Source of the DNA: a virus | Lineage: Duplodnaviria; Caudoviricetes | Virus record (IMG/VR): IMGVR_UViG_3300012663_000597 | Span: 1 to 49,795 of that record | Reading direction: 5' to 3' (one strand) | Length of the DNA stretch: 49,795 nt | Part shown: positions 7,537-26,649 of the stretch, in pieces | Layout: each line of letters begins with the position of its first letter | How positions within the stretch are numbered: the first letter of the stretch is position 1 | Notes under the pieces: model-generated | Told to the model about the DNA's origin: nothing | Seen by the model: only the letters and a program-made list of their open reading frames with translations | The model's database searches: none | Made by a program: the position numbers and the translations under genes

Positions 7537-7863
7537 ATGAGACCCTTGTGCATGTGCGGACAGCATCCTGTAGCAATTAATTACTACAAAGAAGGTAAGC
7601 CCTTCTATAGAAGTCAGTGTGGTCAATGTGCTCGCGGAGTAAAAGTTGCAAAGTGGGTACTAGCAGGTTACAAAAAGAAAAACACCTGTGATAAATGTGG
7701 GTTTAAAAGTCCCTATCAAGAGGTGTTTAGTGTATTCCATACGGATGGAAATTTAAATAATTGCAGGCCTACAAATCTTAAGACGATATGTGCAAATTGT
7801 CAACGGCTTCTTCATCGCGATGGCGTGAAGTGGAAGCAAGGTGATTTAGTACCAGATCTTTAA
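7537..7863 (+). CDS. HNH-endonuclease-like zinc-finger protein (108 aa)
   Basis: CxC/CxxC pairs plus 'VFHTDGNLNNCRPTNLKTICANCQ' HNH-type motif. Start moved from 7411 to ATG 7537, which follows TAAATA-AAGTT and avoids overlap with the sheath gene. Confidence 0.75.
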   Translation: MRPLCMCGQHPVAINYYKEGKPFYRSQCGQCARGVKVAKWVLAGYKKKNTCDKCGFKSPYQEVFSVFHTDGNLNNCRPTNLKTICANCQRLLHRDGVKWKQGDLVPDL

Positions 7864-8476
7864 CTTGTGCAAATAGGTCATCAATAGTAGTGTTGTTGTC
7901 TAACACTGCATCAAAGTTAGTTCCAACCCATGCTGTTTCACTAGCATGAATTTTAAGTTGTTCTAATTTAGCCCTGCTTAAACTCCAAGTAGTATTGCCG
8001 TTAGGGCCTGCATTTACACTAATTGCAGCATCGTACCATTCAGGTTCTGGGCCGCGGTGTACACGCACTACAATGCCGCCTGCGTCTTTAATTGACTTAA
8101 TTTCGTTAGGAAAACGACAGTCTGAAATAACAATGTCGTCTTTGCTGTTACGGAGTTTGTTTTCTAGGCTTGCAATCCAAATATTATCATGGAATGCTTT
8201 ACGGCATACTTCTGTTCCCCAATATTGCAACACCCATCGAGGAGTTAAATTAGGCATATCAAGTCGTTGTGCCCACCACGGATCTACTTGTTCGCGCCAT
8301 TCACGGGCTTGTTTAGTTCGACCCTCTAACATAGTTCGATCCCAACCAAATACATAAGCCACTGCATCTTTTAAGCTGTTAGCAAATGATTCTCGTCGAA
8401 ATCCATGAAAATTTGTAAGGTAGTCAGCAACAGTATCTTTGCCCGAACCAATAAACCCGCATACACCTATAATCAT
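7778..8476 (-). CDS. Deoxynucleoside monophosphate kinase (T4 gp1-like)
   Basis: P-loop 'GFIGSGKDT', 'SFANSLKD', 'TPRWVLQYWGTEVCR', 'VISDCRFPNE', 'HASE'; AGGAG RBS. Confidence 0.92.
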   Translation of the reverse strand: MIIGVCGFIGSGKDTVADYLTNFHGFRRESFANSLKDAVAYVFGWDRTMLEGRTKQAREWREQVDPWWAQRLDMPNLTPRWVLQYWGTEVCRKAFHDNIWIASLENKLRNSKDDIVISDCRFPNEIKSIKDAGGIVVRVHRGPEPEWYDAAISVNAGPNGNTTWSLSRAKLEQLKIHASETAWVGTNFDAVLDNNTTIDDLFAQVKDLVLNHLASTSRHRDEEAVDNLHISS

Positions 8477-10773: not shown

Positions 10774-12260
10774 TGCAACATTTTTATGACGGGCAAATAA
10801 GAAGATACTTAACTCAAACTATTCGTGCGTTAAGCAACTTTGTAGTTAGGTACGGTGATGGTACTCTAGTACGTGTTCCAGTAATGTACGGAGATGCCGA
10901 TAGACAAGCATCTAGCATCATTCGACAAAACAGTGAGAATGCAATTAATAGCTCTCCACGTATTAGTGTTTACATTACAGGATTAGATCTTGATAGAGAA
11001 CGATTGAGCGACAGTACTTATGTAGGTAAATTGAACATTCGTGAACGTGATATCAATCTTGAAACAGATCAATATACTCAAGGACAAGGTCGAAATTATA
11101 CGGTTGAACGTTTAATGCCTACACCGTTTAAATTAACAATGAAGGCAGATATTTGGTCATCAAACACCGAACAAAAATTGCAAATACTAGAACAGATTTT
11201 AGTATTATTCAACCCAAGTCTCGAACTTCAAACAACTGACAACTATGTTGACTGGACTAGCTTAACAGTATTGAATTTAAACAGTACTAACTGGTCAAGC
11301 AGATCCGTACCAGTCGGCACAGATACACCTATTGATATTGCTACGCTAACACTTGACACTCCTATATGGATTAGTCCGCCAGTCAAAGTTAAGCATCTTG
11401 GCGTTATTACAAATATTATTACCAGCATCTATCAAGGCGCAGGAAATGACGGTGCAGGATATATTGACGGACTAACTCCGTATACTCCAGACCCAGGACT
11501 TACAATTTCTAGTTTACTATCAGAGCAACGTACTACAATTACTGATTATAATATCCATGTGTATGGTAGTCAAGCAATGTTGTATTCTAAAACATCAAAT
11601 GCTCTTCCTGCAGAACCTACTTTAGATATACCAGTACTTCAAGGACCTGCTGTATTATGGTCTGAATTGTTTAATCAATATCTCGGAAAGTTTGTTCCCG
11701 GCTCTAGTACTTTATTTTTAACACAACTAAATGGCACAGAAGTTGTTGGCACTATTGCGGTTAATCCGTTAGATGAAACCTTACTTGAAGTTAGTTGGGA
11801 TCCAGATACATATCCAACCAATAACGGTATTGACAGTAACGGGTTAATTGAAACAGTAGATGCAGACTACGACGGTGCAAATAGTTATAGACCAGGAAGT
11901 CCGGGAACGTTTAATGCAATTATTGACCCGTTAACTAAAGCGCCAAGAGGTTCTGGTTTGCCTGATCCCACAATTGGTGTTCGTTACCTAATTGTAGAAG
12001 ACATCGGTGCTGACGGTAACACTGACGGTGCAGATGCGTGGAAAGGCGACGACGATAGCGATTTAGTTGCGCATGCTAATGATATCATTGAATGGGATGG
12101 TACTAAGTGGCAGGTTATATTTGATAGTGTTCAGAAACCTGATGTACTCATCTACCAAACGAATATATACACTAAGATACAATACATGTGGAACGGTGTA
12201 ACATGGGTTAAATCGTTTGAGGGTGCATATAGGGCAGGACATTGGAGAATCGAGTTGTAA
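10773..12260 (+). CDS. gp15: Tail terminator / sheath stabiliser (T4 gp15-like) with C-terminal extension
   Basis: 'HFYDGQIRRY', 'RVPVMYG', 'PRISV', 'PTPFKL', 'QILEQILVLFNPS' gp15 motifs. Confidence 0.85.
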   Translation: MQHFYDGQIRRYLTQTIRALSNFVVRYGDGTLVRVPVMYGDADRQASSIIRQNSENAINSSPRISVYITGLDLDRERLSDSTYVGKLNIRERDINLETDQYTQGQGRNYTVERLMPTPFKLTMKADIWSSNTEQKLQILEQILVLFNPSLELQTTDNYVDWTSLTVLNLNSTNWSSRSVPVGTDTPIDIATLTLDTPIWISPPVKVKHLGVITNIITSIYQGAGNDGAGYIDGLTPYTPDPGLTISSLLSEQRTTITDYNIHVYGSQAMLYSKTSNALPAEPTLDIPVLQGPAVLWSELFNQYLGKFVPGSSTLFLTQLNGTEVVGTIAVNPLDETLLEVSWDPDTYPTNNGIDSNGLIETVDADYDGANSYRPGSPGTFNAIIDPLTKAPRGSGLPDPTIGVRYLIVEDIGADGNTDGADAWKGDDDSDLVAHANDIIEWDGTKWQVIFDSVQKPDVLIYQTNIYTKIQYMWNGVTWVKSFEGAYRAGHWRIEL

Positions 12261-12691
12261 CTGATAAGATTGTGTGTAGTGGCGCATTAATTTACGCCAA
12301 GTCTACTCGCAGATTTTTACTCTTGCAAAAAGCTCAAGGCAAGCATGCCGGAACTTGGGGATTAGTAGGCGGTACTAATCTTCAAGATGAGAATCCTTGG
12401 CAGGGACTCCAGCGTGAAGTTAAAGAAGAAATTGGTTCTATTCCAAAGATTCTTAAAACAATTCCAATTGAAACATTTGTTAGCAACGATTTAGTTTTTA
12501 ACTTTCACACATACTTGTGTGTAGTTGAGAATGAATTCATTCCTGTATTAAGCGATGAACATATTGCATGGGCATGGGCTACAGTTGACTATGCACCTAA
12601 ACCTTTACATCAAGGGTTACGTAATAGCTTTGCTAGTAAAACTATCCGCACAAAACTGCAAACAATATTTGATATTATTGAATTGATTTAA
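12242..12691 (+). CDS. NUDIX hydrolase
   Basis: Nudix box 'GGTNLQDENPWQGLQREVKEEIG' and 'LSDEH..WAW'; start codon uncertain (TTG). Confidence 0.88.
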   Translation: MENRVVTDKIVCSGALIYAKSTRRFLLLQKAQGKHAGTWGLVGGTNLQDENPWQGLQREVKEEIGSIPKILKTIPIETFVSNDLVFNFHTYLCVVENEFIPVLSDEHIAWAWATVDYAPKPLHQGLRNSFASKTIRTKLQTIFDIIELI

Positions 12692-14156
12692 TATAGTCAA
12701 TCCATTGTTTATGATCAACTGCGTATTTTCTTAAATCTAATTTAATTTTCTTTACTTGCTCCGATGCATGTTTAGCATGTTGCATTAAATGTTTAGAATT
12801 CAAATATCTTTCAATACCGTCTTTAGTAAATCTTTGGTGTCCGTATCCAATAGCTGTATAACTAAAAGAATCAAACATACCTTTTTTAGGAAAATCTTGC
12901 GGACCTGGGAATGAATTTTTTAATTTGTTATCTAAATTTTGCAACCAAGTTGGTGTATTGTTAGTTAAAAATTTCCAAAATTCTGAATCTGTTCGTCCCG
13001 TGTGATAAAAGAATCTAATATATTCAAGACTGTTTTCATAAAGCCTATTTGAAAATGTGTTATAGCTATCTATATTAAACTGACATTTGGTTAAAGAATG
13101 TAACGTAGTTATAGTTTCTAATTGACTGTATGCATTATGTAAACTAGTTGCTTCAAGTGGTTCTACAAATCCGCTCGATAATCCAATAGCAATGCAGTTG
13201 CCTATCCATTGATCTTTCCAGTAGCCGTTATTAAACTTAATAACACGGTCACTGGCTAATTCTGTACCGTGTGTTTTTAACAACCATTTATTAAAATCTG
13301 TTTTAGCTTCTTCGTCGGATGTAAATTCTGACGAGTATACATATCCAGTACCTCTCCTATTAGATAACGGAACATCTAATATCCAACCATTCTTAGTTGC
13401 CTCAGCAGTAGTATAAGGTGGTATATAATCGTATTTTTTAAATAAGGGATTAGGAATTGTACGATTAGTAGGTAGTTGGTTAGACACATCAATCCATTCT
13501 GGATCTAGATGTTTAAATAATGCATACTCTAATCCTGATGCATCTATAAACAAGTCGCTAGTAATTGTATTACCTGATGCTAGTATTATAGATGTGATTT
13601 CTCTATTATTAACATTAACCTGTCGTACAACATCGTCGACAATATTAATTCGATCTTTAAATTTTGATTCAATATATCTTCCAACTAGAGTTGCATCAAT
13701 GTGCATAGCATGTCTATAAGATAAATTATCTACGCCAAATATTAAATTATTGTCGTAATAAAAATTGTCATAGTTATATGCATTTTCGTATTCATTATGC
13801 AAAATATCATACGCATCTATTGCATTAAAATCTCTAATTGTAGGATCTGTGGCGGCTAAGGCTTCGTTTATTGGAAAACTATGAGTCCATTCACTGCCTT
13901 CGTATGCCCAGTTTTTAAATTTTAGTCCTAATTTAATTGTGGCATGACAATGTTGCACTAACTCTACAGTTGTTATACCAACAGTTTTTAGATAGTTGTC
14001 AAAAATAGGAGTTAGACTTTCACCGACACCAATTCCAGGTTTACTATGATCGTATATCATAGTAACATCAACTAGCTCTCCCCAATAAGATTTAAAATAA
14101 GTTGCTGCCATAACTCCGGCGGTGCCGCCGCCAACTACTGTAATTTTATAAGCCAT
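12675..14156 (-). CDS. Flavin-dependent (tryptophan) halogenase homolog 1
   Basis: GGGTAG FAD motif, 'IGVGES', catalytic-Lys region 'ATIKLGLKF', 'FIDASG', 'FVEPLEAT'; WxWxIP degenerate as 'WILDVP'. Confidence 0.88.
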   Translation of the reverse strand: MAYKITVVGGGTAGVMAATYFKSYWGELVDVTMIYDHSKPGIGVGESLTPIFDNYLKTVGITTVELVQHCHATIKLGLKFKNWAYEGSEWTHSFPINEALAATDPTIRDFNAIDAYDILHNEYENAYNYDNFYYDNNLIFGVDNLSYRHAMHIDATLVGRYIESKFKDRINIVDDVVRQVNVNNREITSIILASGNTITSDLFIDASGLEYALFKHLDPEWIDVSNQLPTNRTIPNPLFKKYDYIPPYTTAEATKNGWILDVPLSNRRGTGYVYSSEFTSDEEAKTDFNKWLLKTHGTELASDRVIKFNNGYWKDQWIGNCIAIGLSSGFVEPLEATSLHNAYSQLETITTLHSLTKCQFNIDSYNTFSNRLYENSLEYIRFFYHTGRTDSEFWKFLTNNTPTWLQNLDNKLKNSFPGPQDFPKKGMFDSFSYTAIGYGHQRFTKDGIERYLNSKHLMQHAKHASEQVKKIKLDLRKYAVDHKQWIDYIKSIQ

Positions 14157-14783
14157 TTAAAGTGCGTCCTTTGCCATTCCGTAAGCAACATTTATGATTA
14201 CGCGGCGATCTACATCGTGGGGAGTTGCACTTGCATGATAATGCCCGCCATCAAATCCTAATAATCTGTTGCGGCGTGGGGTTACTGTTTGTAATATTGT
14301 TTCCTTTCCTAGGTAGTTTTCTTTAAAATATCCGTAACTTGCATTTGCAAAATCGTCATATCTTGATTTATCTAGATCAAAATCATATTTTTCATTGTAT
14401 ATCACAGTAGGAGAATCTGAGTCGGTTAGATATAATATTCCTACTCTATGAGGAAATGGTAGATCAATATGCGGATCATTAGTGTATTGACCGCAAGTAC
14501 GAGGTTGTAATACTACCCTAACTCTAAATATTTGATCTGCAGGATGTCCTATTTTATCAATGCAATCAAACAGTATAGGCTGTAGTAATACTCCTATGTC
14601 ATTCTGAGCTTGCCCATCAACAATTGGATAGTTTGTAAAGTTAAAAGGGTGTGGATTGTTACTAATAAGTTTCCCAAAAGGATATGTAATTGGACTATAG
14701 TGCCACGGAAAATCATATCTTAATAATTTGTCTTCTAGTAAACTAAGAACAGATGCGGAAAGTGCGTTATCTATTATTTTCAT
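14157..14783 (-). CDS. Fe(II)/2OG-dependent oxygenase-fold protein (HxD type)
   Basis: 'PHID', 'ILYLTDSD', 'FDGGHYHAS', 'RRVIIN'. Confidence 0.8.
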   Translation of the reverse strand: MKIIDNALSASVLSLLEDKLLRYDFPWHYSPITYPFGKLISNNPHPFNFTNYPIVDGQAQNDIGVLLQPILFDCIDKIGHPADQIFRVRVVLQPRTCGQYTNDPHIDLPFPHRVGILYLTDSDSPTVIYNEKYDFDLDKSRYDDFANASYGYFKENYLGKETILQTVTPRRNRLLGFDGGHYHASATPHDVDRRVIINVAYGMAKDAL

Positions 14784-15442
14784 TGAGTTACTGACCTAAT
14801 ATTTCCGGCTACTGATATTCTATAACCGTCACTTGTATAAAACGGATTCACGCTGTGATTTAATTTTGACGGGAACAGTATAATTGTTCCTTCGTGATTT
14901 TTATCTACTTCAATCATAAAATGTTTATGCTGTCCCATTAAATTTGAATAATGAAATGTAAATTTTGAAGTTCTGTTAGAACGATTGCCGCCACTAACTG
15001 TGGGAAAATATGCTTCTTCTTCTGCTAAGTCATATGGTATATTAATCCATATAACAAAACTTGCAATACCTGTATGTTCGTGTGGGGGGTTAAATTCGTG
15101 TTTTTTTTGAATGTTTACCCATAAATCTGTAAGCTGTAACTTTTTATACAACCTCGGATCTGGGTCATCGTAGTGATCAAATAATCCCCACTGTTGATCA
15201 TACAAGTTAGTTAAGTGTAAAATATACGGTTCGATCCTAGAAATACAGTTAGATAAATCATGCTCGTGAACCATATGCCCAAGCAATTTATCATTGTATG
15301 ACTGCTGAGATTTAAAATTACTGTTGATTATTTCTTGTATTTCTAAATTTAGCATAGCTAGCATGTCATCCGGAATTCGATCTGACAATACTCCAATGTT
15401 CGGAAGTTCGTTATATCTTACACTAGGCATGTTATCTGACAT
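14780..15442 (-). CDS. Fe(II)/2OG oxygenase-fold protein (HxH type, TIGR02466-like)
   Basis: 'WVNIQKKHEFNPPHEH', 'FPSKLNHSV', 'RISVAGN'. Confidence 0.82.
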   Translation of the reverse strand: MSDNMPSVRYNELPNIGVLSDRIPDDMLAMLNLEIQEIINSNFKSQQSYNDKLLGHMVHEHDLSNCISRIEPYILHLTNLYDQQWGLFDHYDDPDPRLYKKLQLTDLWVNIQKKHEFNPPHEHTGIASFVIWINIPYDLAEEEAYFPTVSGGNRSNRTSKFTFHYSNLMGQHKHFMIEVDKNHEGTIILFPSKLNHSVNPFYTSDGYRISVAGNIRSVTQ

Positions 15443-15452
15443 GGTTATTCCT

Positions 15453-17255
15453 TTACTGACTGCTATTTTTTACAATAATTAATTTGTTAAATTCTGGTAA
15501 AAACAAATATTCGATATCAGAATTTTGCAAAGTCCATATAGCATCGTCTACAGTTTCAACTAATGGTTCTCCACCTAAATTAAAACTAGTATTAAAAATA
15601 ATAGGACAACCTGTTTGATTATAGAATTCTTTAATTAAATTATAATAATGAAAATTCTGCTCTTCTGTAACTGTTTGTATACGACAAGTACCATCAACGT
15701 GAATGATACTAGGTATTTTTTCTGCAACACCTGGCTGACAATTTACGGCATACATCATGTGCGGACTACTAGTCATACCCCTTAGATCAAACCATTCATG
15801 CACATGTTCTTGCAATATAGATCCAGCAAACGGACGGAAATACTCGCGGTGTTTAACTTTGTTAACGTAATCTTTACCATCTGCAAATCTTGGATCAAAC
15901 AATACACTTCGATTACCTAGAGCACGTGGACCGTTTTCTGACTGGCCCTGATAAATTGTTACAATATTTTTATTAACTAGTAAATTAACTATATCGCTAT
16001 ACGAAGCATCGATGATTTCTACATTATTAGCCTGTGCTATTTTTACAATATGATCAACTGTATAGTTATGTTTAGGCCCTAAATATAAAGTTTCATATTT
16101 TCTAATAGTAGTATCTTCAGTCAAGTGGCGCCAGAAAAACATTGCGGCGCCCATGGCAGTACCTGCATCATTACTAATTGGCTCTACATAAATTTCAATG
16201 CCATCTTCTTTTAATGCGTCAAGGTAATAATAATTAGCAACACAGTTTAAACCGTAACCTCCGCTAATCACTACCCGCTTATTACCTGTCATACTAACTG
16301 CTTTTTTGATTAGTTTAACAACTTCAGCTTGCGTTTGAATTTGCGTAGCATATGCTACATCTCGTCTATTTTGTAATAAACTAACATCTTCGTCGTCACT
16401 AATTGTACCACCTAAGTACGAACTTGTAAGTTTGTTAATTTTTGCACCAGACGGATACGTTGGTATAACTAAATTTCTATTAGATAACGACCTAGGGCCC
16501 TCATCAACAAATAGTGCTGGAATTTCAGTAGACGGCTTTCCGTATGGGAACAATCCCATAGTTTTTCCAGCTTCAATTTCTTGGAAGCCACAATACAAAG
16601 ATGCAGCTTCGTATACTTTTACAATGCCTGCCCTATCTGAAAACAGTGCCTCGTATGTATTTCCAGGTTCGCTAATCCATTCACCGTCCATTTTAGATTC
16701 TAATTTTGGAATAATGTTAAATTTAGTAGCGTGATGTTTGTAGTGTGTTTTAATTTCTGCAGGATAATTGCAACTAAAAATTGATTCTGTTTCCCACGTA
16801 ATAATATCCATATTGTCTATAACTGTAGGAAAAAATGTTCCAGCACCGTCTACTACTAGTGCAGTTGCTGATTCCCAGCCTGATCGATAAAATGCGCAAG
16901 CGGCATGTAACTTGTGATGTATATTACACATATCAATAATTTGCGGATGGTTACTAAAATTGTAGGCTCGGCTAATTAATCCTAGCTTTCTAGCAAACCC
17001 AACATATATATTATCTCCAGTAAACTCTATACTGCCAGCTTCGCCCAATGGAGTAGTATGGGAAAAGACCATATAATCAAGTTTATCGGTGTATTCTAAA
17101 ATTTTAAGTATACTAGCAAACGGGCCGCCATCATACTTGTGTCTAGTAAGTCTTTCTTCTTCTACAGAAAATACAATTTCGCCATCCTTTAGCAAACACA
17201 CACCAGAGTTATGTCCTCTAGCAAATCCTGCAATCCATATTGGTTTTTTATCCAT
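15453..17255 (-). CDS. Carbamoyltransferase (NodU/CmcH/TobZ family)
   Basis: 'GHNSG', 'EEERLTRHK', 'HHKLHA', 'VVDGAG', 'SGGYGLNCVAN', 'DAGTAMG', 'GPRALGNRS', 'KHREYFRPFA', 'NTSFNLGGEPLV'. Confidence 0.95.
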   Translation of the reverse strand: MDKKPIWIAGFARGHNSGVCLLKDGEIVFSVEEERLTRHKYDGGPFASILKILEYTDKLDYMVFSHTTPLGEAGSIEFTGDNIYVGFARKLGLISRAYNFSNHPQIIDMCNIHHKLHAACAFYRSGWESATALVVDGAGTFFPTVIDNMDIITWETESIFSCNYPAEIKTHYKHHATKFNIIPKLESKMDGEWISEPGNTYEALFSDRAGIVKVYEAASLYCGFQEIEAGKTMGLFPYGKPSTEIPALFVDEGPRSLSNRNLVIPTYPSGAKINKLTSSYLGGTISDDEDVSLLQNRRDVAYATQIQTQAEVVKLIKKAVSMTGNKRVVISGGYGLNCVANYYYLDALKEDGIEIYVEPISNDAGTAMGAAMFFWRHLTEDTTIRKYETLYLGPKHNYTVDHIVKIAQANNVEIIDASYSDIVNLLVNKNIVTIYQGQSENGPRALGNRSVLFDPRFADGKDYVNKVKHREYFRPFAGSILQEHVHEWFDLRGMTSSPHMMYAVNCQPGVAEKIPSIIHVDGTCRIQTVTEEQNFHYYNLIKEFYNQTGCPIIFNTSFNLGGEPLVETVDDAIWTLQNSDIEYLFLPEFNKLIIVKNSSQ

Positions 17256-17258
17256 TTT

Positions 17259-17867
17259 TTATCCTAAATCTAAATCTGCGCCAGACCATTCTGCTCTAAT
17301 ATTGCCTTTAACAAATGTGTTAAATGCAATAGAAACTCTTTCATTCGACGTTGTGTTTTTCTTTACATAGTGAAAACATTGCGACGGAAAAATAACAATA
17401 CAATTATCTTCAACTGGTAATTCCCATTCTAACGAATTAAAAAAATTATTTTCTTCCGCTGTTAAGTTTAGTAGCATAGGCGGAGTTAGTCTACTAAATG
17501 TAATTGATGGGGTGCTATCTTTGGTTTTTATATATAACACCCCAGATACTATACTATTATTGTGATTATGTATATTGTGTGCTTGACCTGGTTGTGTTAC
17601 ATTTAACCATGAGTTTGTCATATGCAATTTATAATTGTATTTCATGACTTCAGTATAATATTTTTGAGCATGCTCTAAACAAATTTCTTTCAGCCTATTG
17701 AATACTGGGTTATTCAATAACTCACTATTAAATGATGTATTATTTCCGAGTGCCTGTAAAAAAACATCAGTTGAGTAAATATTATCTAATTCTGTTTGTG
17801 TAAGTGTAACTGCATGATTCTTTTTATATATTACCGTTGGAAAGAGGGGAAATAGTTTGTAGTCCAT
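17259..17867 (-). CDS. Fe(II)/2OG oxygenase-fold protein (HxH type, TIGR02466-like), tandem paralog A
   Basis: 'LFPTVIY', 'SWLN', 'HNHNNSIVSGVLYI', 'FPSQCFHYV', 'RVSIAFN'. Confidence 0.88.
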   Translation of the reverse strand: MDYKLFPLFPTVIYKKNHAVTLTQTELDNIYSTDVFLQALGNNTSFNSELLNNPVFNRLKEICLEHAQKYYTEVMKYNYKLHMTNSWLNVTQPGQAHNIHNHNNSIVSGVLYIKTKDSTPSITFSRLTPPMLLNLTAEENNFFNSLEWELPVEDNCIVIFPSQCFHYVKKNTTSNERVSIAFNTFVKGNIRAEWSGADLDLG

Positions 17868-17876
17868 ATAGTATCC

Positions 17877-18479
17877 TTACACTGTTGATTCCACAGGTTC
17901 GTCAAATTCCCAGCTATAATTAACGAATGTGTTAAATGCAATAGAAACTCTTTCGTTTGATGTTACATTTTTCTTCACGTAGTGAAAATACTGCGATGGA
18001 AAAATAATAATACAATTATCGTCAACCGGCAATTCCCACTCTAACGAATTAAAAAAATTATATTCTTCAGCTTTTACATTTAACAACAACGGTGGGGTTA
18101 ATCTACTAAACGTAATTGACGGTGTACTATCTTTAGTTTTTATGTATACCACTCCTGATAACACACTATTATTATGATTATGCATGTCGTGCGCTTGACC
18201 CGGCTGTGTTACGTTTAACCATGAGTTTGTCATATGCAATTTATAATTATATTTCATAACTTCAGTATAATATTTTTGAGCATGCTCTAAACAAATTTTC
18301 CTTAATTTAGAAAATACTGGGTTATTCAACAACAAGACATTAATTGATGAACCATTGCCTTGAGGCTGTAAGTAAACATCAGTTGCGTAAATAGCATCTA
18401 ATTCTTGTTGAGTAATATCAAACGCAAAATCTTTTTTATATATTACTGTTGGAAAAAGAGGGAATAGCTCATAGTCCAT
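17877..18479 (-). CDS. Fe(II)/2OG oxygenase-fold protein (HxH type, TIGR02466-like), tandem paralog B
   Basis: Same motifs; long stretches identical to 17259..17867. Confidence 0.88.
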   Translation of the reverse strand: MDYELFPLFPTVIYKKDFAFDITQQELDAIYATDVYLQPQGNGSSINVLLLNNPVFSKLRKICLEHAQKYYTEVMKYNYKLHMTNSWLNVTQPGQAHDMHNHNNSVLSGVVYIKTKDSTPSITFSRLTPPLLLNVKAEEYNFFNSLEWELPVDDNCIIIFPSQYFHYVKKNVTSNERVSIAFNTFVNYSWEFDEPVESTV

Positions 18480-18482
18480 CAG

Positions 18483-19424
18483 TTATTCTCCTACATTGCG
18501 TTTAACAGATTCTACAATTTGTTTAAGTTGATCAGTAGTTAATTTCATAATTGATTCGTTAGCCAAATCTGCAACTTCATCATAACATAGTCTTATAGGG
18601 GAATATATTTTTTTATCTTCTCCAAAATCTAAAATGTCAAATCTACTATAATCGGGATATGACACATTTTGTTTAAATGTGCCGCCGAGTGCTATTGTTG
18701 CTTTTTTATTTAGACCAAATGCGGCATGTTGTCCTACGCTATCACAACCTAAAAAATAATCTGCTGCATTAATAACAGCAAACCATTTTCGTAAATTAAG
18801 ACCAGTAATTTGAGCCGGATCAATAGTTGTGTACCCTAGTTCTTTAAAATTAATATTAGATTCTGTCATTAATATAATAGTAAACTCTTGCTGTAATTGT
18901 TCTATAATTTTAACAACGTCGTCTATAAAAAACGATTTACCAAAGGTGTCAAATTGTATTGTGTGTTGTTGCATATTTGCGCCGCGGCCAAATGGTTGGA
19001 ATACAATTGTTTTTTTATTTTTTGTAGATTTTTTTATAGTATTAACAGTTTCAATCCCGCCAAAATATTCTTCGTTAGATAACTTAATCCGCGGTGCTCC
19101 TATATACCGAAGACCTTTCTGATTAATTGCAATGTCAAACGCTTGAGAAATACTAGCTTGTTGATTATAATATTCCCATACATGATACGGTTCTGGAGAT
19201 ACATAGTTTCTATTTTTAATTTTATCATGAAATAAATTTTTATGATGAAATTCAAAACACCGCTTATACAACGTTGGATGCCCTTTAAAAAACTCCATGC
19301 CGTGTTCGACAATTATAACAAAATCGTCGTCGGGGTTTTCCGTTTCAAATAACTCTAATGCAGGGATAGAACATAACACTCTACCTGCGCCGCCGTTGAT
19401 TAAAAATGCTGTTGATCTTTTCAT
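18483..19424 (-). CDS. Glycosyltransferase, GT9/heptosyltransferase-like GT-B fold
   Basis: N-terminal 'GGAGRVLCSIPAL', 'IVFQPFG', 'AVINAADYFLGCDSVGQHAA' resembling the GT9 DSGxxHxA motif. Confidence 0.65.
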   Translation of the reverse strand: MKRSTAFLINGGAGRVLCSIPALELFETENPDDDFVIIVEHGMEFFKGHPTLYKRCFEFHHKNLFHDKIKNRNYVSPEPYHVWEYYNQQASISQAFDIAINQKGLRYIGAPRIKLSNEEYFGGIETVNTIKKSTKNKKTIVFQPFGRGANMQQHTIQFDTFGKSFFIDDVVKIIEQLQQEFTIILMTESNINFKELGYTTIDPAQITGLNLRKWFAVINAADYFLGCDSVGQHAAFGLNKKATIALGGTFKQNVSYPDYSRFDILDFGEDKKIYSPIRLCYDEVADLANESIMKLTTDQLKQIVESVKRNVGE

Positions 19425-19428
19425 ATAA

Positions 19429-20037
19429 TTATAATTTTAAATAAGTTAAGCCTTCATCAGACCCAAATTCTCCGCGAGCAAACACATTAAATGCAATGCT
19501 TACTCGTTCGTAGTCGCTTTCATTTTTATCAACACTATGATATAACATCGACGGAAATAATACAATTGTATTATTTTTTACTTGGACTTTCCAGAGGTCA
19601 CTATTCCATATATTAAAAGAACTTCTCTTCATAGTTAGTAATGATAGTTCTGATTTCCTATGAAATACAATATTGTCGTTATCGCCTGCTTGCAAATAAA
19701 ATGTTCCACTAATAATACTATTATAATGGTAATGTATATGATGTTCGGTATCTTTTGGATTAACATTTACCCACGATTGTGTAACATAAAATTCATTAGA
19801 GTCCCACATCATTACATTTTTAGCATAGTGATCAATTTCTTTTTGAACTAGTTCTTTAATTTCTTTGAACATAGGTTCAGATAAAATATCTCGATTGTTA
19901 CTTGCCCAATTTTGTCCAGCATTGCGATAATATTCTAATTCTTTACAATAGTCAAGGACTTGCTGAAATTTCTGAGGCAGTGCATCAGAAGTTGCTACGT
20001 AAACTGGTACTGAGAATAACGGAATTATTTCACCCAT
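19429..20037 (-). CDS. Fe(II)/2OG oxygenase-fold protein (HxH type, TIGR02466-like)
   Basis: 'LFSVPVY', 'SWVN', 'HYHYNSIISGTFYL', 'FPSMLYHSV', 'RVSIAFN'. Confidence 0.88.
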   Translation of the reverse strand: MGEIIPLFSVPVYVATSDALPQKFQQVLDYCKELEYYRNAGQNWASNNRDILSEPMFKEIKELVQKEIDHYAKNVMMWDSNEFYVTQSWVNVNPKDTEHHIHYHYNSIISGTFYLQAGDNDNIVFHRKSELSLLTMKRSSFNIWNSDLWKVQVKNNTIVLFPSMLYHSVDKNESDYERVSIAFNVFARGEFGSDEGLTYLKL

Positions 20038-21619
20038 TATGTACCTTTGTTTTTAAATACTGGAACAACGATGGAGCATTTTTTGCAGCAGTTTGCCATT
20101 TTTTCTGTAGCTCTCCTCGCCTAGTAACAAACAAATCTACAATTGACTTAACATCGATGCCAAATACATGTGACGCAAAAATAGTGTTAAGTTTACTCAT
20201 AACAAAAAAGTGCATACCAGTTGCAACGCAGTGAATTCCGCCAAAATCTTGATGATTAAAATGAAACATTTTTCTATTGGCTAAATCAGCAAATCCTTTC
20301 GCAACAGTTGGTATTAATTTTGTCATCTCTGGATTGAATGTTTTATTTGAAATTGTACGCCAATATTCAGTATCATCTCTGATGCTTAGTGCATAGTGCA
20401 TTGCTACAAATTCTGCAAAATTGTTATATAATTCTAAGGTTGAAGAATTATACACATCTCGATCCCATTGTGTTACATAACCTTGTCGATCTAATGTTGC
20501 AATTATTTTAAATAAGAATTCGTGTACAGTAAACAATCCGTTACTTTCAAGGGGTTCAATAAACCCTGCGCTTAACCCAATTGCAACTACGTTTTTAACC
20601 CAGGTGCGCTCGTGGATTCCAATACGCATGCTAATATCTTTATACGTTAATGCATCTACTTGTTCTCTAGTTCGAGGAACTGTCATCTTATCACTCATCA
20701 AATACTGTTTGAATTCTTCCTTAGCATCCTCGGGGCTTACAAATTTATCGCTATAAACATACCCTGTGCCAATTCTACTCCATAAAGGAATATTCCAACA
20801 CCACCCGTTATTGATAGCTGTACAATTAGTATATGGTTCTAATTCTTTTTCAATTTCTACATAAGGAACTTGTGCAGCCCATGCGCGATTGTTTGGTAAC
20901 ATATCTGAATAGGAAATAAAAGGCTCTGCTAGTGCTTCGCCTAATAGCATACTTTTCCAACCAGTACAATCAACAAATAAATCAGCAACTATTTCGTCGC
21001 CGTTATCCATAACTAGTTTTTCTATGCCTGCATCAGATGTATTAACATTAGAAATACTGCGTTGAATAAGGGTTACGCCTCGTGGAATACAATATTCATC
21101 GCATAACCACTTACCAAACAATGCAGCTTCAAAATGATATGCTACATCTAAATCTGGTCTGTAATTGTCAAGGCCTGTAGGGTCATTAGTAAATTTATTA
21201 TTTTCTATTAATGGCATTGTTGAAAAATACGTCCTACAATAATCTTCAACTGGTGTTTCAGGATAAAATATCTTCTTAGCTTGCCAATCTTTTAGACCAT
21301 CGTCGCCGTCAAATACTATTGGATTGCCAAACGGATAATGAAATGACCCGGCATCTTTGTTATAAAAATCAGTAAACTTAATACTCATTTTATATGAAGC
21401 ATTAGTATACTTCATAAAATCTTGTTCGTCTATTCCCAACGCATGCATCCAGTGTCTAATACCGCCTAGGGTACTTTCACCAACACCAACAATTGGAACA
21501 TTTGGGCTTTCTATTACAGTTATTTTTTTATGTGGAAAGAAGTTAATTAGAGTTGCAGCGGTCATCCACCCTGCACTTCCTCCACCTACTACTACAATGT
21601 TTTCAATTTTTTTAGGCAT
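20030..21619 (-). CDS. Flavin-dependent (tryptophan) halogenase homolog 2
   Basis: GGGSAG, 'VGVGEST', 'ASYKMSIKF', 'FVDCTG', canonical 'WCWNIP', 'FIEPLESNG'; AGGAG RBS. Confidence 0.93.
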   Translation of the reverse strand: MPKKIENIVVVGGGSAGWMTAATLINFFPHKKITVIESPNVPIVGVGESTLGGIRHWMHALGIDEQDFMKYTNASYKMSIKFTDFYNKDAGSFHYPFGNPIVFDGDDGLKDWQAKKIFYPETPVEDYCRTYFSTMPLIENNKFTNDPTGLDNYRPDLDVAYHFEAALFGKWLCDEYCIPRGVTLIQRSISNVNTSDAGIEKLVMDNGDEIVADLFVDCTGWKSMLLGEALAEPFISYSDMLPNNRAWAAQVPYVEIEKELEPYTNCTAINNGWCWNIPLWSRIGTGYVYSDKFVSPEDAKEEFKQYLMSDKMTVPRTREQVDALTYKDISMRIGIHERTWVKNVVAIGLSAGFIEPLESNGLFTVHEFLFKIIATLDRQGYVTQWDRDVYNSSTLELYNNFAEFVAMHYALSIRDDTEYWRTISNKTFNPEMTKLIPTVAKGFADLANRKMFHFNHQDFGGIHCVATGMHFFVMSKLNTIFASHVFGIDVKSIVDLFVTRRGELQKKWQTAAKNAPSLFQYLKTKVHNG

Positions 21620-21625
21620 CTCTAC

Positions 21626-21695
21626 TCCTTTATGCAGTTACTTATCACGATATTAGTAGGGTGTGAAAATTCTTGATAAGTAACTGCACAAAGGA
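21626..21695. promoter_or_regulatory. Divergent late promoter + RBS cassettes forming a 22-bp inverted repeat
   Basis: TGATAAGTAACTGCA(T/C)AAAGGA on both strands (21626-21647 and 21674-21695; one mismatch). Confidence 0.8.
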
Positions 21696-21704
21696 TCTTG
21701 GTAC

Positions 21705-22433
21705 ATGAATAATAGTTTACAAAATAACAATTGGAAATTTTCGGAATTTAAAAGTAAACCTCCTAAGAGTCCATTTGCTCCAAACTACCATTATATATTT
21801 GCCGAAAATCTTATTGAAGATGTTGATTTTAAAAAAATTGCATCTATAATCTTAGAAAAAGAAAAAGAAATTGTTGGCTCTACTATACCAACAACTGATG
21901 CGTATACTGGATTAGGCGACAACAGTTTAACCTCTCGTTGGAAATCATTTAATATATTTTCCTGGACAGAACCAGAAATAGAAAAATTGAAAGTTCAGAT
22001 ATATGGAAGATATCTAGAATTTCTTCAAGCATATAACGTACCTCGGTCAGATGTTATGATACAGTGTTGGGCAAATGTAATGCGAGAAGGTGAGCAAATA
22101 CGTCCACACATACATGCATCCGGTGAATGGTCATATTTGGGTGGACATGTTACTATACAATGCGAAGACACTAGCACAGTTTATATTAACCCAATAGATC
22201 AAATCAACGAACCAGATGTATACGTTAGTTATAATCGAATAGGAAAAATTACACTATTCCAGCACAACATTCCGCACTATACTACTCCTCATCATAGTAA
22301 TACTAACTCGGAAAGAATTACTCTTGCTTTTGATATTTCAATGGCAGAGTTTGTTAATTTGTTTGATCATGAAGCACATCCTGAATGGAAGAACTATGTA
22401 ATGTTTGACTACCCATCTAAGGAGAAAACATGA
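21705..22433 (+). CDS. Fe(II)/2OG oxygenase-fold protein (HxH type)
   Basis: 'WANVMREGEQIRPHIH', 'LFQHNIPHYT', 'RITLAFD'. Confidence 0.8.
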   Translation: MNNSLQNNNWKFSEFKSKPPKSPFAPNYHYIFAENLIEDVDFKKIASIILEKEKEIVGSTIPTTDAYTGLGDNSLTSRWKSFNIFSWTEPEIEKLKVQIYGRYLEFLQAYNVPRSDVMIQCWANVMREGEQIRPHIHASGEWSYLGGHVTIQCEDTSTVYINPIDQINEPDVYVSYNRIGKITLFQHNIPHYTTPHHSNTNSERITLAFDISMAEFVNLFDHEAHPEWKNYVMFDYPSKEKT

Positions 22434-23599
22434 ATATAGCTGTTATAGGAGTTGGTACTGCCGGTGTAACTTCCTTATGTCACGCACTTAGATGGTTATC
22501 TAACGAACATAGTACTATTACTTCAATTTATGATCCTAATGTAAAAATTTTAGCAATTGGGGAGTCGATGGATCCTGGATTTCCTACAGTATTATTTGAA
22601 GGGGCCGGTTTTACTCTATTAGAAGATGCAAAAGAGTTAGATGCTACTCTAAAATTAGGAGTTACTTGGAAAAATTGGAGGGATAATGAATTTACTTCTT
22701 TTATGCATCCGCCAGTATATGCTATGCATTTTAATAACGGCAAATTAAAAGATTTTTGCTTTGAACGATTTACAAAAATATGGGGCAATAGATTTAAAAT
22801 TATCGAAGGTGCAGTTACTGATTTAACTAGTACTTCTGATGTAGCAACTGTTACAGTTAATAATATCGAACACCATTTTGACTTTGTAATTGATTGTAGA
22901 GGAACACCAAAAGATCTAACAGATTATAATGTCATTAAAGATCCCGTTAATCATTGCTTAGTAAATGTTATAGACGAACCGGGAACGTGGAATACTACAA
23001 TTCACCAAGCGCATGCTAATGGTTGGATGTTTGGTATTCCATTGACTACTAGACAAGGGTGGGGTTATTTGTATAACGACAATATCACCTCAAGAGAAGA
23101 GGCAGTTGCAGATATTGAGAAAATTTTTAATACAACTAAGTTAGATCTAAGAGAGTTTAAATTTAACAGTTATTATGCAAAAAGTTTTTTTAATGGTCGT
23201 ATAATTAAAAATGGAAATGCTGCGTTATTTTTTGAACCAATGGAAGCATTATCTGGATATTTTTACAGCACTGTTATGAGAAATCTAACTGATTATATTT
23301 TTGGAGAGTGTTCGGTAGAGGAGGTTAATTATAGATTAACTGAGGCGGCACAAGACATTGAAAATTTTATTAATTTTGCATATCATGGTGGTTCAACTTT
23401 TGATAGTGAATTTTGGAAAACTACAATTGCTAATACTACTAACAAGCTACAAACTGATCAACGATGGGCTGAGACTGTTAAAGATATAAAATCGTGCATT
23501 GCCGATGGAAAAATTATTCAAGAAAAATCTATTGCAAGATGGTATATTAGACACTGGCTTAATTGGGATAAAAATCTAGAGTATAACTATTTTACTTGA
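22430..23599 (+). CDS. Flavin-dependent halogenase homolog 3 (short, divergent)
   Basis: GVGTAG, 'AIGES', 'ATLKLGVTW', 'VIDCRG', 'WMFGIP', 'FFEPMEA'. Confidence 0.8.
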   Translation: MNIAVIGVGTAGVTSLCHALRWLSNEHSTITSIYDPNVKILAIGESMDPGFPTVLFEGAGFTLLEDAKELDATLKLGVTWKNWRDNEFTSFMHPPVYAMHFNNGKLKDFCFERFTKIWGNRFKIIEGAVTDLTSTSDVATVTVNNIEHHFDFVIDCRGTPKDLTDYNVIKDPVNHCLVNVIDEPGTWNTTIHQAHANGWMFGIPLTTRQGWGYLYNDNITSREEAVADIEKIFNTTKLDLREFKFNSYYAKSFFNGRIIKNGNAALFFEPMEALSGYFYSTVMRNLTDYIFGECSVEEVNYRLTEAAQDIENFINFAYHGGSTFDSEFWKTTIANTTNKLQTDQRWAETVKDIKSCIADGKIIQEKSIARWYIRHWLNWDKNLEYNYFT

Positions 23600-23603
23600 T
23601 CAT

Positions 23604-23633
23604 AAAAAAACGGACTGTTAAAGTCCGTTTTTT
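23604..23633. terminator. Bidirectional rho-independent terminator
   Basis: A7-CGGACT-GTTAA-AGTCCG-T6 between convergent genes. Confidence 0.9.
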
Positions 23634-23641
23634 ATTAACAC

Positions 23642-24178
23642 TTAAGGTTGCGGAGGCTCGTCCGGAGTGTTTGCCCATTTTGAGTCAACTGTATCTAATA
23701 CACCCGGCATAGGTGGCCATTCAAATTCTGAACGTTTTCTAATAGTACTAAAATCAATATCGTCTGTGATTGATCGTAACTTGGCACGATATTCTGCCCA
23801 TTCAGCTCGTTCTTCAGGTGTTAATGGTGCATCAGCTACTTGGGTCCAATCAGTTCTTAATAAGTAAGTCATTCTAGGGCCAGCGACCCAACGGCGAATT
23901 TTTTCTTTAACAGAAAGTTCTTGAACATTCCAGAGTTGTTCAATATTACCGTCGTCATTTTTAATAATTTCTCCGCGGAAAACATCAAAGCTATCAAGAT
24001 CGTGTTCACCATCGCCTGGGGGAGCACTATAGTTCTCAATAACTTTTAAGTTATTTGCTGCTAATGTCTCAGGCGATGGTACTGAAACTAAGTCTTCGGC
24101 ACCTACTAAATACCGAACGTTTTCCCACGTTATCGGAAATCCTTCCGGATTTCCATTACTATCAACTTTAATATACAT
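23642..24178 (-). CDS. Tail fibre assembly chaperone
   Basis: 'RMTYLLRTDWTQVADAPLTPEERAEWAEYRAKLRSIT...WPPMP', typical of phage tail assembly chaperones; directly downstream of a fibre gene. Confidence 0.85.
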   Translation of the reverse strand: MYIKVDSNGNPEGFPITWENVRYLVGAEDLVSVPSPETLAANNLKVIENYSAPPGDGEHDLDSFDVFRGEIIKNDDGNIEQLWNVQELSVKEKIRRWVAGPRMTYLLRTDWTQVADAPLTPEERAEWAEYRAKLRSITDDIDFSTIRKRSEFEWPPMPGVLDTVDSKWANTPDEPPQP

Positions 24179-24194
24179 TAATTATTCTCCAATT

Positions 24195-26309
24195 TTATAA
24201 GTCGCCAGTGTTAGTTGATGGATATGCTCTACTTGGGCCCCACATGATTCGAACAGCACCTCTGCCACCCCATCCGCCGCCTTGGCCGGTACCACCACCG
24301 CCGCCCCCACCGCCATATGATCCGCCGCATGCAAATCCGTTGCCAGCACCGTTTGAGTAAGGTTCGCCCCAACCACCGCAAGTACCGTTTGAACCAAATT
24401 GTCCACCACCGCCAGAGGTTCCGTGACCAATTGAAGGGTTACTACATGCACCGTTGTTACCTTGGCCTCTAATACCAGTACCGCCGCCGCCGCCGGAGCC
24501 GTGAGTTGATGAATGGTGTGATGCGGCACTTCCGCCGCCGCCATGACATCCAACATATCCTGAGTTAGCCTGGTTGCATAAGTTGTTAGCGTATCCACCA
24601 CCGCCACCACCACCGCCAGCAGCGTTAGGATATGCAACCATACCGCAACTTCCGCAACAAACAGCGTATGGCCCACTAACGTTGAAGCTACCGCCGCAAC
24701 ATCCGCAAGCGCCACCGCATGCAGTCATAATACCAGCAAAGCAAGAGCAGCCGCCTTGACTTCCGTTCCAGCAACCACCGTGGCCTGCTTTAACACCGTA
24801 ACCCTGTCCTGGAGTTACTGGTACACCGTTAGCCCATGCAAGACCACCGCCCGCGCCACCGCATGCAGCCCAATAATAAATTCCACCGCCGCCACCGCCG
24901 ATAACGGCAATCGATACAGAGTTAACACCTGCTGGAGCAACCCATGTATAGTCATTTCCTGAAGATCCACCACCAGCGGTATTATATGAACCTTCATATA
25001 GTGATTGTCCAGTTGGTACAGGTACGTTTATTGTTACAGTAAATGCTCGATCTTCAAATAAAGTGCCTACTGTTGCTCGTATAGTAAAACTAGATCCAAC
25101 TGATGATCCAGCTCCCGATGTTGATGTGCCGCTAATAGTACCGTTACTAGTGTTTAAGCTACCACCAGACGGTAATGATCCGCTTTGCAATGAATATGTT
25201 ATTGCAGCACCGCTAACTGAAGTTGCATTAACACTAAATGAGTAGGCTGCAGATGCGTTGGCAGTTATTGTACCAAGACCGCTAGCAGTGTTCCAAACAA
25301 TTCTGTTAAGCACGTAGTTTCTATTAGCAGCATGTTCTGCTTGGGTCGGATTTGGAACACATACTGGGCCGGCAAACGTCGACGTAACGCCTGCACTTGT
25401 TGATACAGAGCCACCAGTTACTGATAATCCGTTATTGGCAGCAAGTGAAGTAAATTCACCGGTGTTTCTAGTAACTGATCCAATAGGAGTAGCTTGAATA
25501 CTGTCAGCGTCTAGTAGTCCGCCAACGTGCAATGCACCGCTTATACCAACACCACCGGTTACTACAACAGTACCGCTACCAGTGCCTGTACTTGCTGTAC
25601 CAGCAGTAAACGACACTTGCGAGTTTGCACCTAATGTTGTGAATGCACCAGCAGCTCTGGTAACACCACCAATGTTTGTATTATTAATATTGCCAGTAGT
25701 AGCCGGGCTCATCGACACAGTACCTGTACCAGTTGGACTAATAGTAACTGTTTGGTTTGCTGGGCTTAGACCAACAGCATTGTTAGCATCTAATGTAGTA
25801 AAGTTACCAGCGCCCCTAGTAGTGCCGCCAATTGCTACGTTGTTAATGGTACCTGCTGTTCCTGGATTAATAGTAACAGTACCAGTACCAGTTGGGCTAG
25901 CTGTAACGCTTGCATTTGCTGGGCTTAACGATACTGCACCGTTTGCAGTTAATGTGCTACTAAATGTACCAGTAGTTGCTGATACTGGGCCACCTTCGTT
26001 GTTGCTAATGACATATGCTGTACCATTAGATGTTACAGAAAAACTAGTATTATTAGGAATAGTTTGACTAGTTGCCGCAGTAAATCCGCTACCTATAAGG
26101 TTCGCGCCGCCTGCAACTGCAAGAGTTACGTTGCCACCTGTGTTATTAAAAATATGTTGTATTGTACCAACGAACGATGCTGGAGGTGCAAGGGTTACTG
26201 TATAACCCGGTGTGCCAGTTAATAGTAGAGTAGCGCCGTTAATTACATAGGTAAATGTAGTCGCGCCAGTTACCGATATGGTCGATTGTGTTGTATTAAA
26301 ACGTGCCAT
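24195..26309 (-). CDS. Tail fibre / adhesin with shaft repeats, Ig-like domain and Gly/Cys-rich C-terminal tip
   Basis: Repeats of 'INNxxIGGxTRxAGxFTTL' and 'SPTGTGTV'; Ig-like 'ITYSLQSGSLPSG..LNTSNGTISGT'; polyglycine domain 'IGGGGGG...GGRGAVRIMWG'. Confidence 0.82.
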   Translation of the reverse strand: MARFNTTQSTISVTGATTFTYVINGATLLLTGTPGYTVTLAPPASFVGTIQHIFNNTGGNVTLAVAGGANLIGSGFTAATSQTIPNNTSFSVTSNGTAYVISNNEGGPVSATTGTFSSTLTANGAVSLSPANASVTASPTGTGTVTINPGTAGTINNVAIGGTTRGAGNFTTLDANNAVGLSPANQTVTISPTGTGTVSMSPATTGNINNTNIGGVTRAAGAFTTLGANSQVSFTAGTASTGTGSGTVVVTGGVGISGALHVGGLLDADSIQATPIGSVTRNTGEFTSLAANNGLSVTGGSVSTSAGVTSTFAGPVCVPNPTQAEHAANRNYVLNRIVWNTASGLGTITANASAAYSFSVNATSVSGAAITYSLQSGSLPSGGSLNTSNGTISGTSTSGAGSSVGSSFTIRATVGTLFEDRAFTVTINVPVPTGQSLYEGSYNTAGGGSSGNDYTWVAPAGVNSVSIAVIGGGGGGIYYWAACGGAGGGLAWANGVPVTPGQGYGVKAGHGGCWNGSQGGCSCFAGIMTACGGACGCCGGSFNVSGPYAVCCGSCGMVAYPNAAGGGGGGGGYANNLCNQANSGYVGCHGGGGSAASHHSSTHGSGGGGGTGIRGQGNNGACSNPSIGHGTSGGGGQFGSNGTCGGWGEPYSNGAGNGFACGGSYGGGGGGGGTGQGGGWGGRGAVRIMWGPSRAYPSTNTGDL

Positions 26310-26328: not shown

Positions 26329-26649
26329 TTACGTTGTCGATGTTTCAATGCCGTATACTGTACATCCTAGATTTGCAGTGTCTGAATATACTACTATATT
26401 TAGTCCTGCTTGTAGCACTAATCCAGTACGCTCAAATACACCGTTAGGAATAAGAATAGTATCGTATTCGATCCATTCCGATGTGTTTGGTGTGCCAGTT
26501 GACGACATTGCTACACGTATTTGAATAGCGGTTGTATTTCTGTTTGTAAGAGAAATATTACATACAGTGTAATATCCGGTTGGAACTGTGTACACTGTAG
26601 TGTTTGTTGTTGCAGCAATTGCGAAATTGCCTAATCTTCCTGTTGCCAT
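26329..26649 (-). CDS. Small beta-rich virion protein associated with fibres
   Basis: 106 aa, 'TTVYTVP...NISLTNR...GLVLQAG..IVV'; GGAG RBS; between fibre genes. Confidence 0.7.
   Translation of the reverse strand: MATGRLGNFAIAATTNTTVYTVPTGYYTVCNISLTNRNTTAIQIRVAMSSTGTPNTSEWIEYDTILIPNGVFERTGLVLQAGLNIVVYSDTANLGCTVYGIETSTT

Follow-up and report, generated by a model that had tools for sequence, protein, structure and literature searches.

A glycosyltransferase-carbamoyltransferase pair linked to cysteine-rich tail-fibre tips of aquatic phages, with S-heptosylation of the tip as a possible function

The DNA analysed here (the window) is the whole 49.8-kb record IMGVR_UViG_3300012663_000597 (49,795 nucleotides, nt) of an uncultured myophage. 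It carries an island of 11 consecutive, divergently transcribed open reading frames (ORFs; 12675-23599) that comprises three flavin halogenases, six Fe/2-oxoglutarate (2OG)-fold oxygenases, one NodU-type carbamoyltransferase (CT) and one GT9-fold transferase (GT). Among relatives, GT and CT form a core layer that co-varies with Cys-rich fibre tips, and halogenases and oxygenases form an accessory set. The GT probably acts on a Cys-rich tail protein. S-heptosylation of the fibre cysteines by the GT, followed by carbamoylation of the sugar by the CT, is given even chances on the sequence evidence.

Linkage of the GT and CT to cysteine-rich tips

The proposed acceptor is a 704-amino-acid (aa) fibre (24195-26309, minus strand), of which residues 431-704 form an adhesin tip with 16 of the 17 Cys. 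The tip is Pam3-gp24-like and Gly/Cys-rich, consisting of a TNF-like sandwich and a glycine-rich lattice, and its homologues carry PF21722. Its neighbours, likewise on the minus strand, are a PF16778 tail-fibre assembly chaperone (23642-24178), a conserved 106-aa protein at the start of the tip slot (26329-26649) and a Cys-poor (0.45%) giant fibre of 2890 aa (26664-35336).

For an enzyme-independent survey, the 106-aa gene was used as anchor (alignment built from GT loci). The best 80 of 592 relatives were taken, 10 loci with <8 kb downstream were dropped, and 70 were scored. Tips with at least 14 Cys and at least 25 Gly in the last 200 aa were classed as Cys-rich. Within 10 kb of the anchor, a GT was present in 30 of 31 Cys-rich tip loci versus 0 of 39 others, and a CT in 30 of 31 versus 1 of 39. 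In the exception (L106) the GT lies at the flank edge, just beyond 10 kb. After clustering, a step that dropped L106, the GT count from 45 of 48 rows was 17/17 for Cys-rich tips versus 0/28. The non-Cys tips in the slot are His-rich glycine lattices, C1q-like domains and other types. No GT was found in five records with non-Cys tips (38-75% complete), three of which have a CT of another clade elsewhere. A backbone tree built from the C-terminus of the giant fibre shows 8 changes of tip class, 7 of them forced; the GT follows tip class in 7 of 7 independent pairs (p 0.016; 6/6 without window-type rows). The synteny check suggested by an earlier sequence-only reading of the window yields co-variation of GT and CT with Cys-rich tips.

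The GT-anchored survey covered 97 sequences (96 loci and the window; 61 GT clusters at 90%). A CT was present in 95 of them, the Cys/Gly-rich tip family (9.8% Cys) in 79 and the chaperone family in 80; the counts for halogenases and window-like oxygenases were 9 and 10. An epimerase gene occurred in 21, and 24 had nucleotidyltransferase, PfkB kinase and cupin genes. The gene order fibre, 106-aa gene, tips, chaperone, GT, CT is kept in S-CAM1, P-SSM2 and S-SSM7, followed by ADP-heptose-type genes, and the GT-tip link survives inversion of the tip block. Of 144 GT genes, 134 have a neighbour with at least 12 Cys per 200 aa no more than 7 kb away, and the remaining 10 loci are truncated on one side.

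Tips of the window type were collected from 17 loci, 4 of them on the same contigs as earlier loci; they are 55-67% identical and have 13-18 Cys and a His motif. Two short contigs (L316 and L318, tips with 13-14 Cys) were left unscored. GT, CT and oxygenase occur together in 13 of the 17 loci, 12 of these with halogenases, and the other 4 are cut by contig ends; the window tip type therefore consistently carries both enzyme sets. Cys-free members of the window tip subfamily in the same slot (L099 and L287) have a CT of another clade and no GT in records of 44 and 51 kb.

Further variants were recorded at these loci. In 45 GT loci, a gene of 300 aa lies between GT and CT (e.g. L049:10938-11837); it has SGNH-like motifs by eye and no Pfam match, and is a candidate sugar O-acyltransferase or esterase. 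The ADP-heptose-type set (L053:14225-14602; cyanophage loci L001-L003) includes a cupin annotated as 'cysteine dioxygenase' and a short haloacid dehalogenase (HAD) protein annotated as 'phosphoheptose isomerase'; the cupin may replace the isomerase. Window-type fibres at L271:775-3096, L273:8462-10786 and L055:342-2543 have Cys also studding the shaft just before the tip. At L093:4661-7422, a 670-aa protein (68 Cys) and a 249-aa protein (22 Cys), apparently not glycine-rich tips, precede chaperone, GT and CT.

Distant GT homologues (~24% identity) were found in N4-like Vibrio phages and in Aeromonas phage HJ05, with no CT in the stretches read around them. ADP-heptose synthesis occurs in Vibrio and Aeromonas. 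In Vibrio phages K479 and SBP1, the GT gene is located directly before that of a tail protein with 14 Cys in a predicted coiled-coil stretch. The homologue of this protein in mv51A7 has 0 Cys in the same stretch, with mostly Q, E, D, S, T, N or G opposite the Cys, and mv51A7 gave no GT match. In HJ05, the fibre just before the GT has 17 Cys per 200 aa, versus at most 5 in the other 14 listed genes. A scan of the distant clade gave 10 viral loci, 5 of them with neighbours of 17-31 Cys per 200 aa; at L329:4725-6997, two RCC1-like repeat proteins (by eye) with 28 Cys each directly precede an Arg-type GT. The location of distant GT homologues beside Cys-studded tail proteins of unrelated folds is new here, as is the Vibrio Cys contrast.

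Predicted chemistry of the GT and CT

The GT (18483-19424, minus strand) is a heptosyltransferase-like protein of 313 aa, a bare domain with the GT-B fold of the GT9 group. It belongs to phrog_8954, whose model matches GT9 structures, and its family comprises 3201 clusters at E 1e-5. Residues D228, S229, G231 and H233 are invariant, so that the WaaC D261/H266 donor-site motif (D228-S-x-G-x-H233) is kept. R15, invariant in 103 of 103 GT members, aligns with the catalytic Asp13 of WaaC. The D13A exchange lowers WaaC activity 4688-fold (PMC5713226), and TibC uses Asp110 as base (PMC4358343); the Arg was compared with the TibC position through WaaC, not directly. The LPS (lipopolysaccharide) heptosyltransferase model TIGR02201 weakly matches all 103 GT members below its cut-off, and TIGR04414 (TibC/Aah) is touched by 3 of the 103 only (best E 0.04). 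The GT would work like TibC/Aah, and is not a member of that family because the Asp base is missing. A predicted heptose-binding motif that is kept, yet combined with an invariant Arg in place of WaaC Asp13, is new here.

The CT (15453-17255, minus strand) is of the NodU/TobZ type, with Kae1-like and YrdC-like domains (PF02543 and PF16861 over cut-off), matches to TobZ, GdmN and NovN, and conserved motifs. It falls into a 43-row clade in which all rows are GT-linked (Shimodaira-Hasegawa value 99, FastTree). Its identity is 46-60% to GT-adjacent cyanophage CTs, with 59.5% to that of S-SSM7, versus 34-39% to CTs annotated beside thymidylate synthase. A separate clade of 490-aa CTs is located between primase-like and helicase-like genes (L257:6150-7622 in G002, also in G004 and G005) and could be DNA-related; these CTs fall outside the GT-linked clade.

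In the proposed mechanism, the GT9-fold enzyme would transfer heptose from ADP-heptose onto tip Cys thiols and the CT would carbamoylate the heptose on the tip. This would give the adhesin a glycan coat and alter its receptor binding or stability. The GT fold and the kept DSxGxH motif make ADP-heptose the expected donor, as do the ADP-heptose genes found next to the GT in cyanophages, which have hosts without heptose. Cyanobacterial LPS is described as free of heptose as well as of 3-deoxy-D-manno-oct-2-ulosonic acid (Kdo; PMC4515613), which would explain why cyanophages bring a donor pathway. A Cys acceptor is suggested because a thiolate needs no general base and would be stabilised by the Arg. 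It is further suggested by the gain of Cys at polar surface positions in unrelated folds only with the GT, and by loss of the base for hydroxyl activation. The sugar is the likely CT substrate, since this CT clade is always GT-linked whereas the GT can occur alone. The earlier assumption of hydroxylation followed by carbamoylation or glycosylation is not required as an order of steps, because most GT+CT loci are without a nearby oxygenase and the Vibrio and Aeromonas phages have the GT alone.

More generally, it is conceivable, at somewhat less than even chances, that a phage-specific GT9 clade exchanged its Asp for Arg and became a protein S-heptosyltransferase. In unrelated phage families (T4-like cyanophages, giant aquatic myophages, N4-like Vibrio phages and an Aeromonas myophage), tail adhesins of any fold would then be studded with surface Cys that serve for glycosylation. 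Swappable enzyme sets that match the tip type would afterwards add carbamoyl, acetyl, halogen and hydroxyl groups, and host range would vary at a chemical level invisible in sequence.

Accessory enzymes, promoter-like motif and window layout

All three island halogenases have GxGxxG and a Lys at the catalytic position. The WxWxIP motif is intact only in 20030-21619 (minus strand; WCWNIP, PF04820 E 4e-103), for which phage VirX1 was the best PDB match (6qgm, E 7e-107). It is replaced by WILDVP in the 493-aa homologue 12675-14156 (minus strand; PF04820 E 4e-82) and by WMFGIP in the short, 389-aa homologue 22430-23599 (plus strand; PF04820 E 9e-31). Five oxygenases are PF13759 members with the motif HxH..H..R: 14780-15442, 17259-17867, its tandem paralogue 17877-18479 and 19429-20037 on the minus strand, and 21705-22433 on the plus strand. 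The sixth (14157-14783, minus strand; phrog_274, with a family member matching PF13640) has the canonical HxD..H..R. Its PHROG family label is 'DNA endonuclease V' (denV in cyanophage records) despite the 2OG-oxygenase motifs, likely a propagated mis-annotation.

In the anchor survey, halogenases were present within 10 kb at 2 of 31 Cys-rich versus 36 of 39 other tip loci, and oxygenases at 10 of 31 versus 37 of 39. Both are thus mostly absent at Cys-tip loci and common beside His-rich or C1q-like tips. No halogenase was found in a complete 364-kb Cys-tip genome, and in 3 of 5 Cys-tip records a halogenase lies elsewhere in the record, away from the GT. The halogenases and oxygenases may modify other tip residues (His, Trp, Tyr or Asn), which is the weakest step of the mechanism. 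Action of these enzymes on the tip is plausible, though less likely than not, as their co-location fails the tree test. The sequence-only reading had proposed a virion protein, most plausibly the fibre tip, as substrate of the whole island. For GT and CT the tip is well supported by synteny, tree contrasts and the Vibrio/Aeromonas contrast, and for the halogenases and oxygenases the case is weaker.

Two other tip types were observed with such enzymes. L104:12129-14735, L122:11104-13700 and relatives have three paralogous His-rich glycine-lattice tips in the same slot. After these come a halogenase and several 2OG oxygenases, as well as a dUTPase-like family (f37) and a JmjC-like gene, which may be a parallel system for His/Asn tailoring. 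The C1q-like tips of L110:10963-13814 and L111:10954-13847 are rich in Trp, Tyr, His and Asn and occur with halogenases and oxygenases, without GT.

The promoter-like motif GATAAGTA has 4 copies in the window, a number that chance would also give (at least 4 in 27 of 100 shuffled sequences). All 4 are placed 13-47 nt upstream of a gene start. For the form GATAA[AG]TA, 7 of 8 copies lie within 80 nt before a gene start (binomial p 6e-11). The island's two GATAAGTA copies form a divergent promoter-like pair (21633-21688), a perfect 15-bp inverted repeat (21633-21647 / 21674-21688) with the motif in each arm 27-30 nt before a start. The pair recurs in L004 and L262, and none was seen in 8 other window-type loci. 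Island gene blocks occur in both orientations among relatives. The earlier claim that both arms start at a motif used by structural genes holds for placement; the copy number is not above chance, and the adjacent 704-aa fibre lacks its own copy within the window. Late expression of the island was inferred because the motif is common to structural genes (fibre, tube-like, neck and terminase-small).

Pfam and PHROG scans took in 32 ORFs of the window, which is a genome fragment, and identified sheath, tubes, neck, baseplate wedge and two giant fibres. ORF calls, Pfam, PHROG and motifs confirmed the 11 consecutive tailoring-enzyme genes of the sequence-only reading. Its placement of the island between neck genes and chaperone plus fibre was right for the chaperone/fibre side; on the other side, a NUDIX gene (12242-12691) separates the island from gp15. 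The NUDIX hydrolase and a deoxynucleoside monophosphate (dNMP) kinase (7778-8476) are embedded among sheath and neck genes, and the NUDIX position is kept in relatives whether the island is present or not. The same scans revealed no nonribosomal peptide synthetase or polyketide synthase (NRPS/PKS), thymidylate synthase or DNA methylase, as had been stated before. No short precursor with leader, protease or exporter of the type of ribosomally made, post-translationally modified peptides (RiPPs) was found among window ORFs of at least 70 aa.

Alternative explanations and relation to known systems

Several observations weigh against S-heptosylation of the tip. The Asp/Arg equivalence was obtained from sequence alignments only, the pairwise one weak (hhalign probability 4.9%), and without the Asp base the enzyme could just as well be dead or use an anionic acceptor. 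Part of the GT-tip linkage could stem from inheritance of the genes as a single block. One 32-kb phage, 93% complete, lacks a GT and has a tip with 10 Cys. Among 11 window-type tips, about 10 Cys are shared by 9-11, which fits disulfides or metal sites too. The Vibrio Cys contrast is a single independent comparison. In the distant clade, a Cys-studded neighbour was found at only 5 of 10 loci. None lies within 6-7 kb at L327, L331 and L333, where the maxima are 6, 9 and 10 Cys per 200 aa and the records 11-29% complete; L326, with Lys, is cut off, and L334 is fragmentary. For the accessory layer, the halogenase-tip link fails the independent-pairs tree test (p 0.25-1).

The cassette might act on the fibre without S-glycosylation, either by O-heptosylation of Ser/Thr as in TibC/Aah, with the Cys serving as disulfides or metal sites, or with the GT as a partner that binds or folds Cys-rich tail proteins without catalysis. 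This is rather unlikely: TibC needs its Asp110 (PMC4358343) where the GT family has Arg, and Ser and Thr are not higher in GT-linked than in other tips (S 23 versus 26, T 17 versus 19; Cys 14.5 versus 1.3). A dead GT fits poorly with the donor motif, the dedicated CT and the ADP-heptose genes. Production of a halogenated amino-acid or sugar metabolite, above all by the halogenases and oxygenases, with the tip slot as a recombination hotspot, was proposed in print for the Syn9 (PMC2938197) and S-SSM6a (PMC7824862) clusters. It agrees with VirX1 as the closest solved halogenase, with halogenases remote from the GT in the 3 Cys-tip records and with the failed tree test. It is nevertheless improbable, since the window has no scaffold synthase, the GT-Cys link is left unaccounted for, and halogenases stand near the anchor at 36 of 39 non-Cys tip loci.

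Modification of the host surface (LPS or capsule), which would block superinfection or grazing, is considered quite improbable. The weak TIGR02201 match of all 103 GT members speaks for it, and carbamoylated heptose occurs in Pseudomonas LPS. It is also the published reading of cyanophage 'LPS genes' (PMC2984593, PMC7824862). Against it stand the reported lack of heptose and Kdo in cyanobacterial LPS (PMC4515613) and the motif shared with structural genes. Tracking of tip Cys by the GT through 7 independent changes and the Vibrio Cys contrast would also be unexplained. Hypermodification of phage DNA by CT, GT and oxygenases would fit the dNMP kinase and NUDIX genes that flank the region. Phage carbamoyltransferases acting on hydroxymethylcytosine (hmC) are known. 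This explanation is hardly credible here, given the GT9 fold, a 49.8-kb window without thymidylate-synthase-like or methylase gene, the NUDIX gene in loci without GT, the closer relation of the CT to GT-adjacent than to thymidylate-synthase-adjacent enzymes, and the position of the primase/helicase-associated CTs outside its clade.

Since ~2005-2010, the 'LPS genes' of aquatic phages, like their CTs, halogenases and 2OG oxygenases, have been classed as auxiliary metabolic genes whose target is unknown. With the proposed modification of the tip by S-linked heptose, the target, the residue and the mass shift are specified and testable in cultured S-CAM1, P-SSM2, S-SSM7, Vibrio SBP1/K479 and Aeromonas HJ05. 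If true, S-linked heptose would be added to protein chemistry, receptor-binding proteins would be chemically tailored, and expression of such fibres in the absence of the enzymes would leave them incomplete. A literature search, with most subscription papers and supplements outside its reach, found no paper linking the GT to Cys-rich tail proteins or S-glycosylation.

The closest relative is the cyanomyovirus 'LPS gene' or sugar- and amino-acid-modification cluster (P-SSM2 PSSM2_307-313, S-SSM7 120-133, S-CAM1; PMC3037559, PMC7824862), with the same gene order and 42-49% (GT) and 46-60% (CT) identity. Its co-occurring 'LPS' genes are listed in PMC3037559, and capsule decoration or a metabolite was proposed for S-SSM6a (PMC7824862). 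In the available parts, these papers assign the cluster to LPS, capsule or metabolite without a tie to Cys-rich tips. The window differs in having no ADP-heptose genes in view and more halogenases and oxygenases. The Syn9 array (PMC2938197), for which metabolites were proposed, and VirX1 likewise involve several distinct 2OG oxygenases with tryptophan-halogenase homologues. In contrast, the window set is located in the tip slot with GT and CT, and two of its three halogenases have a variant WxWxIP. For bacterial operons, the same paper makes a separate prediction that tail-collar and glycine-rich proteins are modified. Compared with the Pam3 gp24 fibre and gp25 chaperone (PMC9608196, PDB 7ypx), the window tip differs by its Cys-studding and by fusion to a longer shaft; the available text on gp24 mentions neither cysteines nor modification. 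Relative to WaaC, WaaF and WaaQ, the phage GTs have Arg for the catalytic Asp13 and score far below the family cut-off (17.7 versus 170 bits).

Glycocin S-glycosyltransferases, by comparison, place a sugar on Cys sulfur. These and the mycobacteriophage systems use other GT families and hexoses or N-acetylhexosamine, on small peptides or capsid and tail-tube proteins, and are not known to place heptose on an adhesin. Phage-encoded virion glycosylation as such is known from mycobacteriophages (Freeman 2023, as cited in PMC12582341). TibC/Aah (PMC4358343) have an Asp base, extra beta-barrel and iron-finger parts and a dodecameric assembly, whereas the phage GT is a bare domain with Arg; its gene lies near an adhesin gene, and glycosylation of this adhesin by the GT is putative. 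The cluster is thus already in print, and the GT/CT cassette would be kin to phage-encoded virion glycosylation and adhesin heptosylation, with a specific chemistry now proposed for it.

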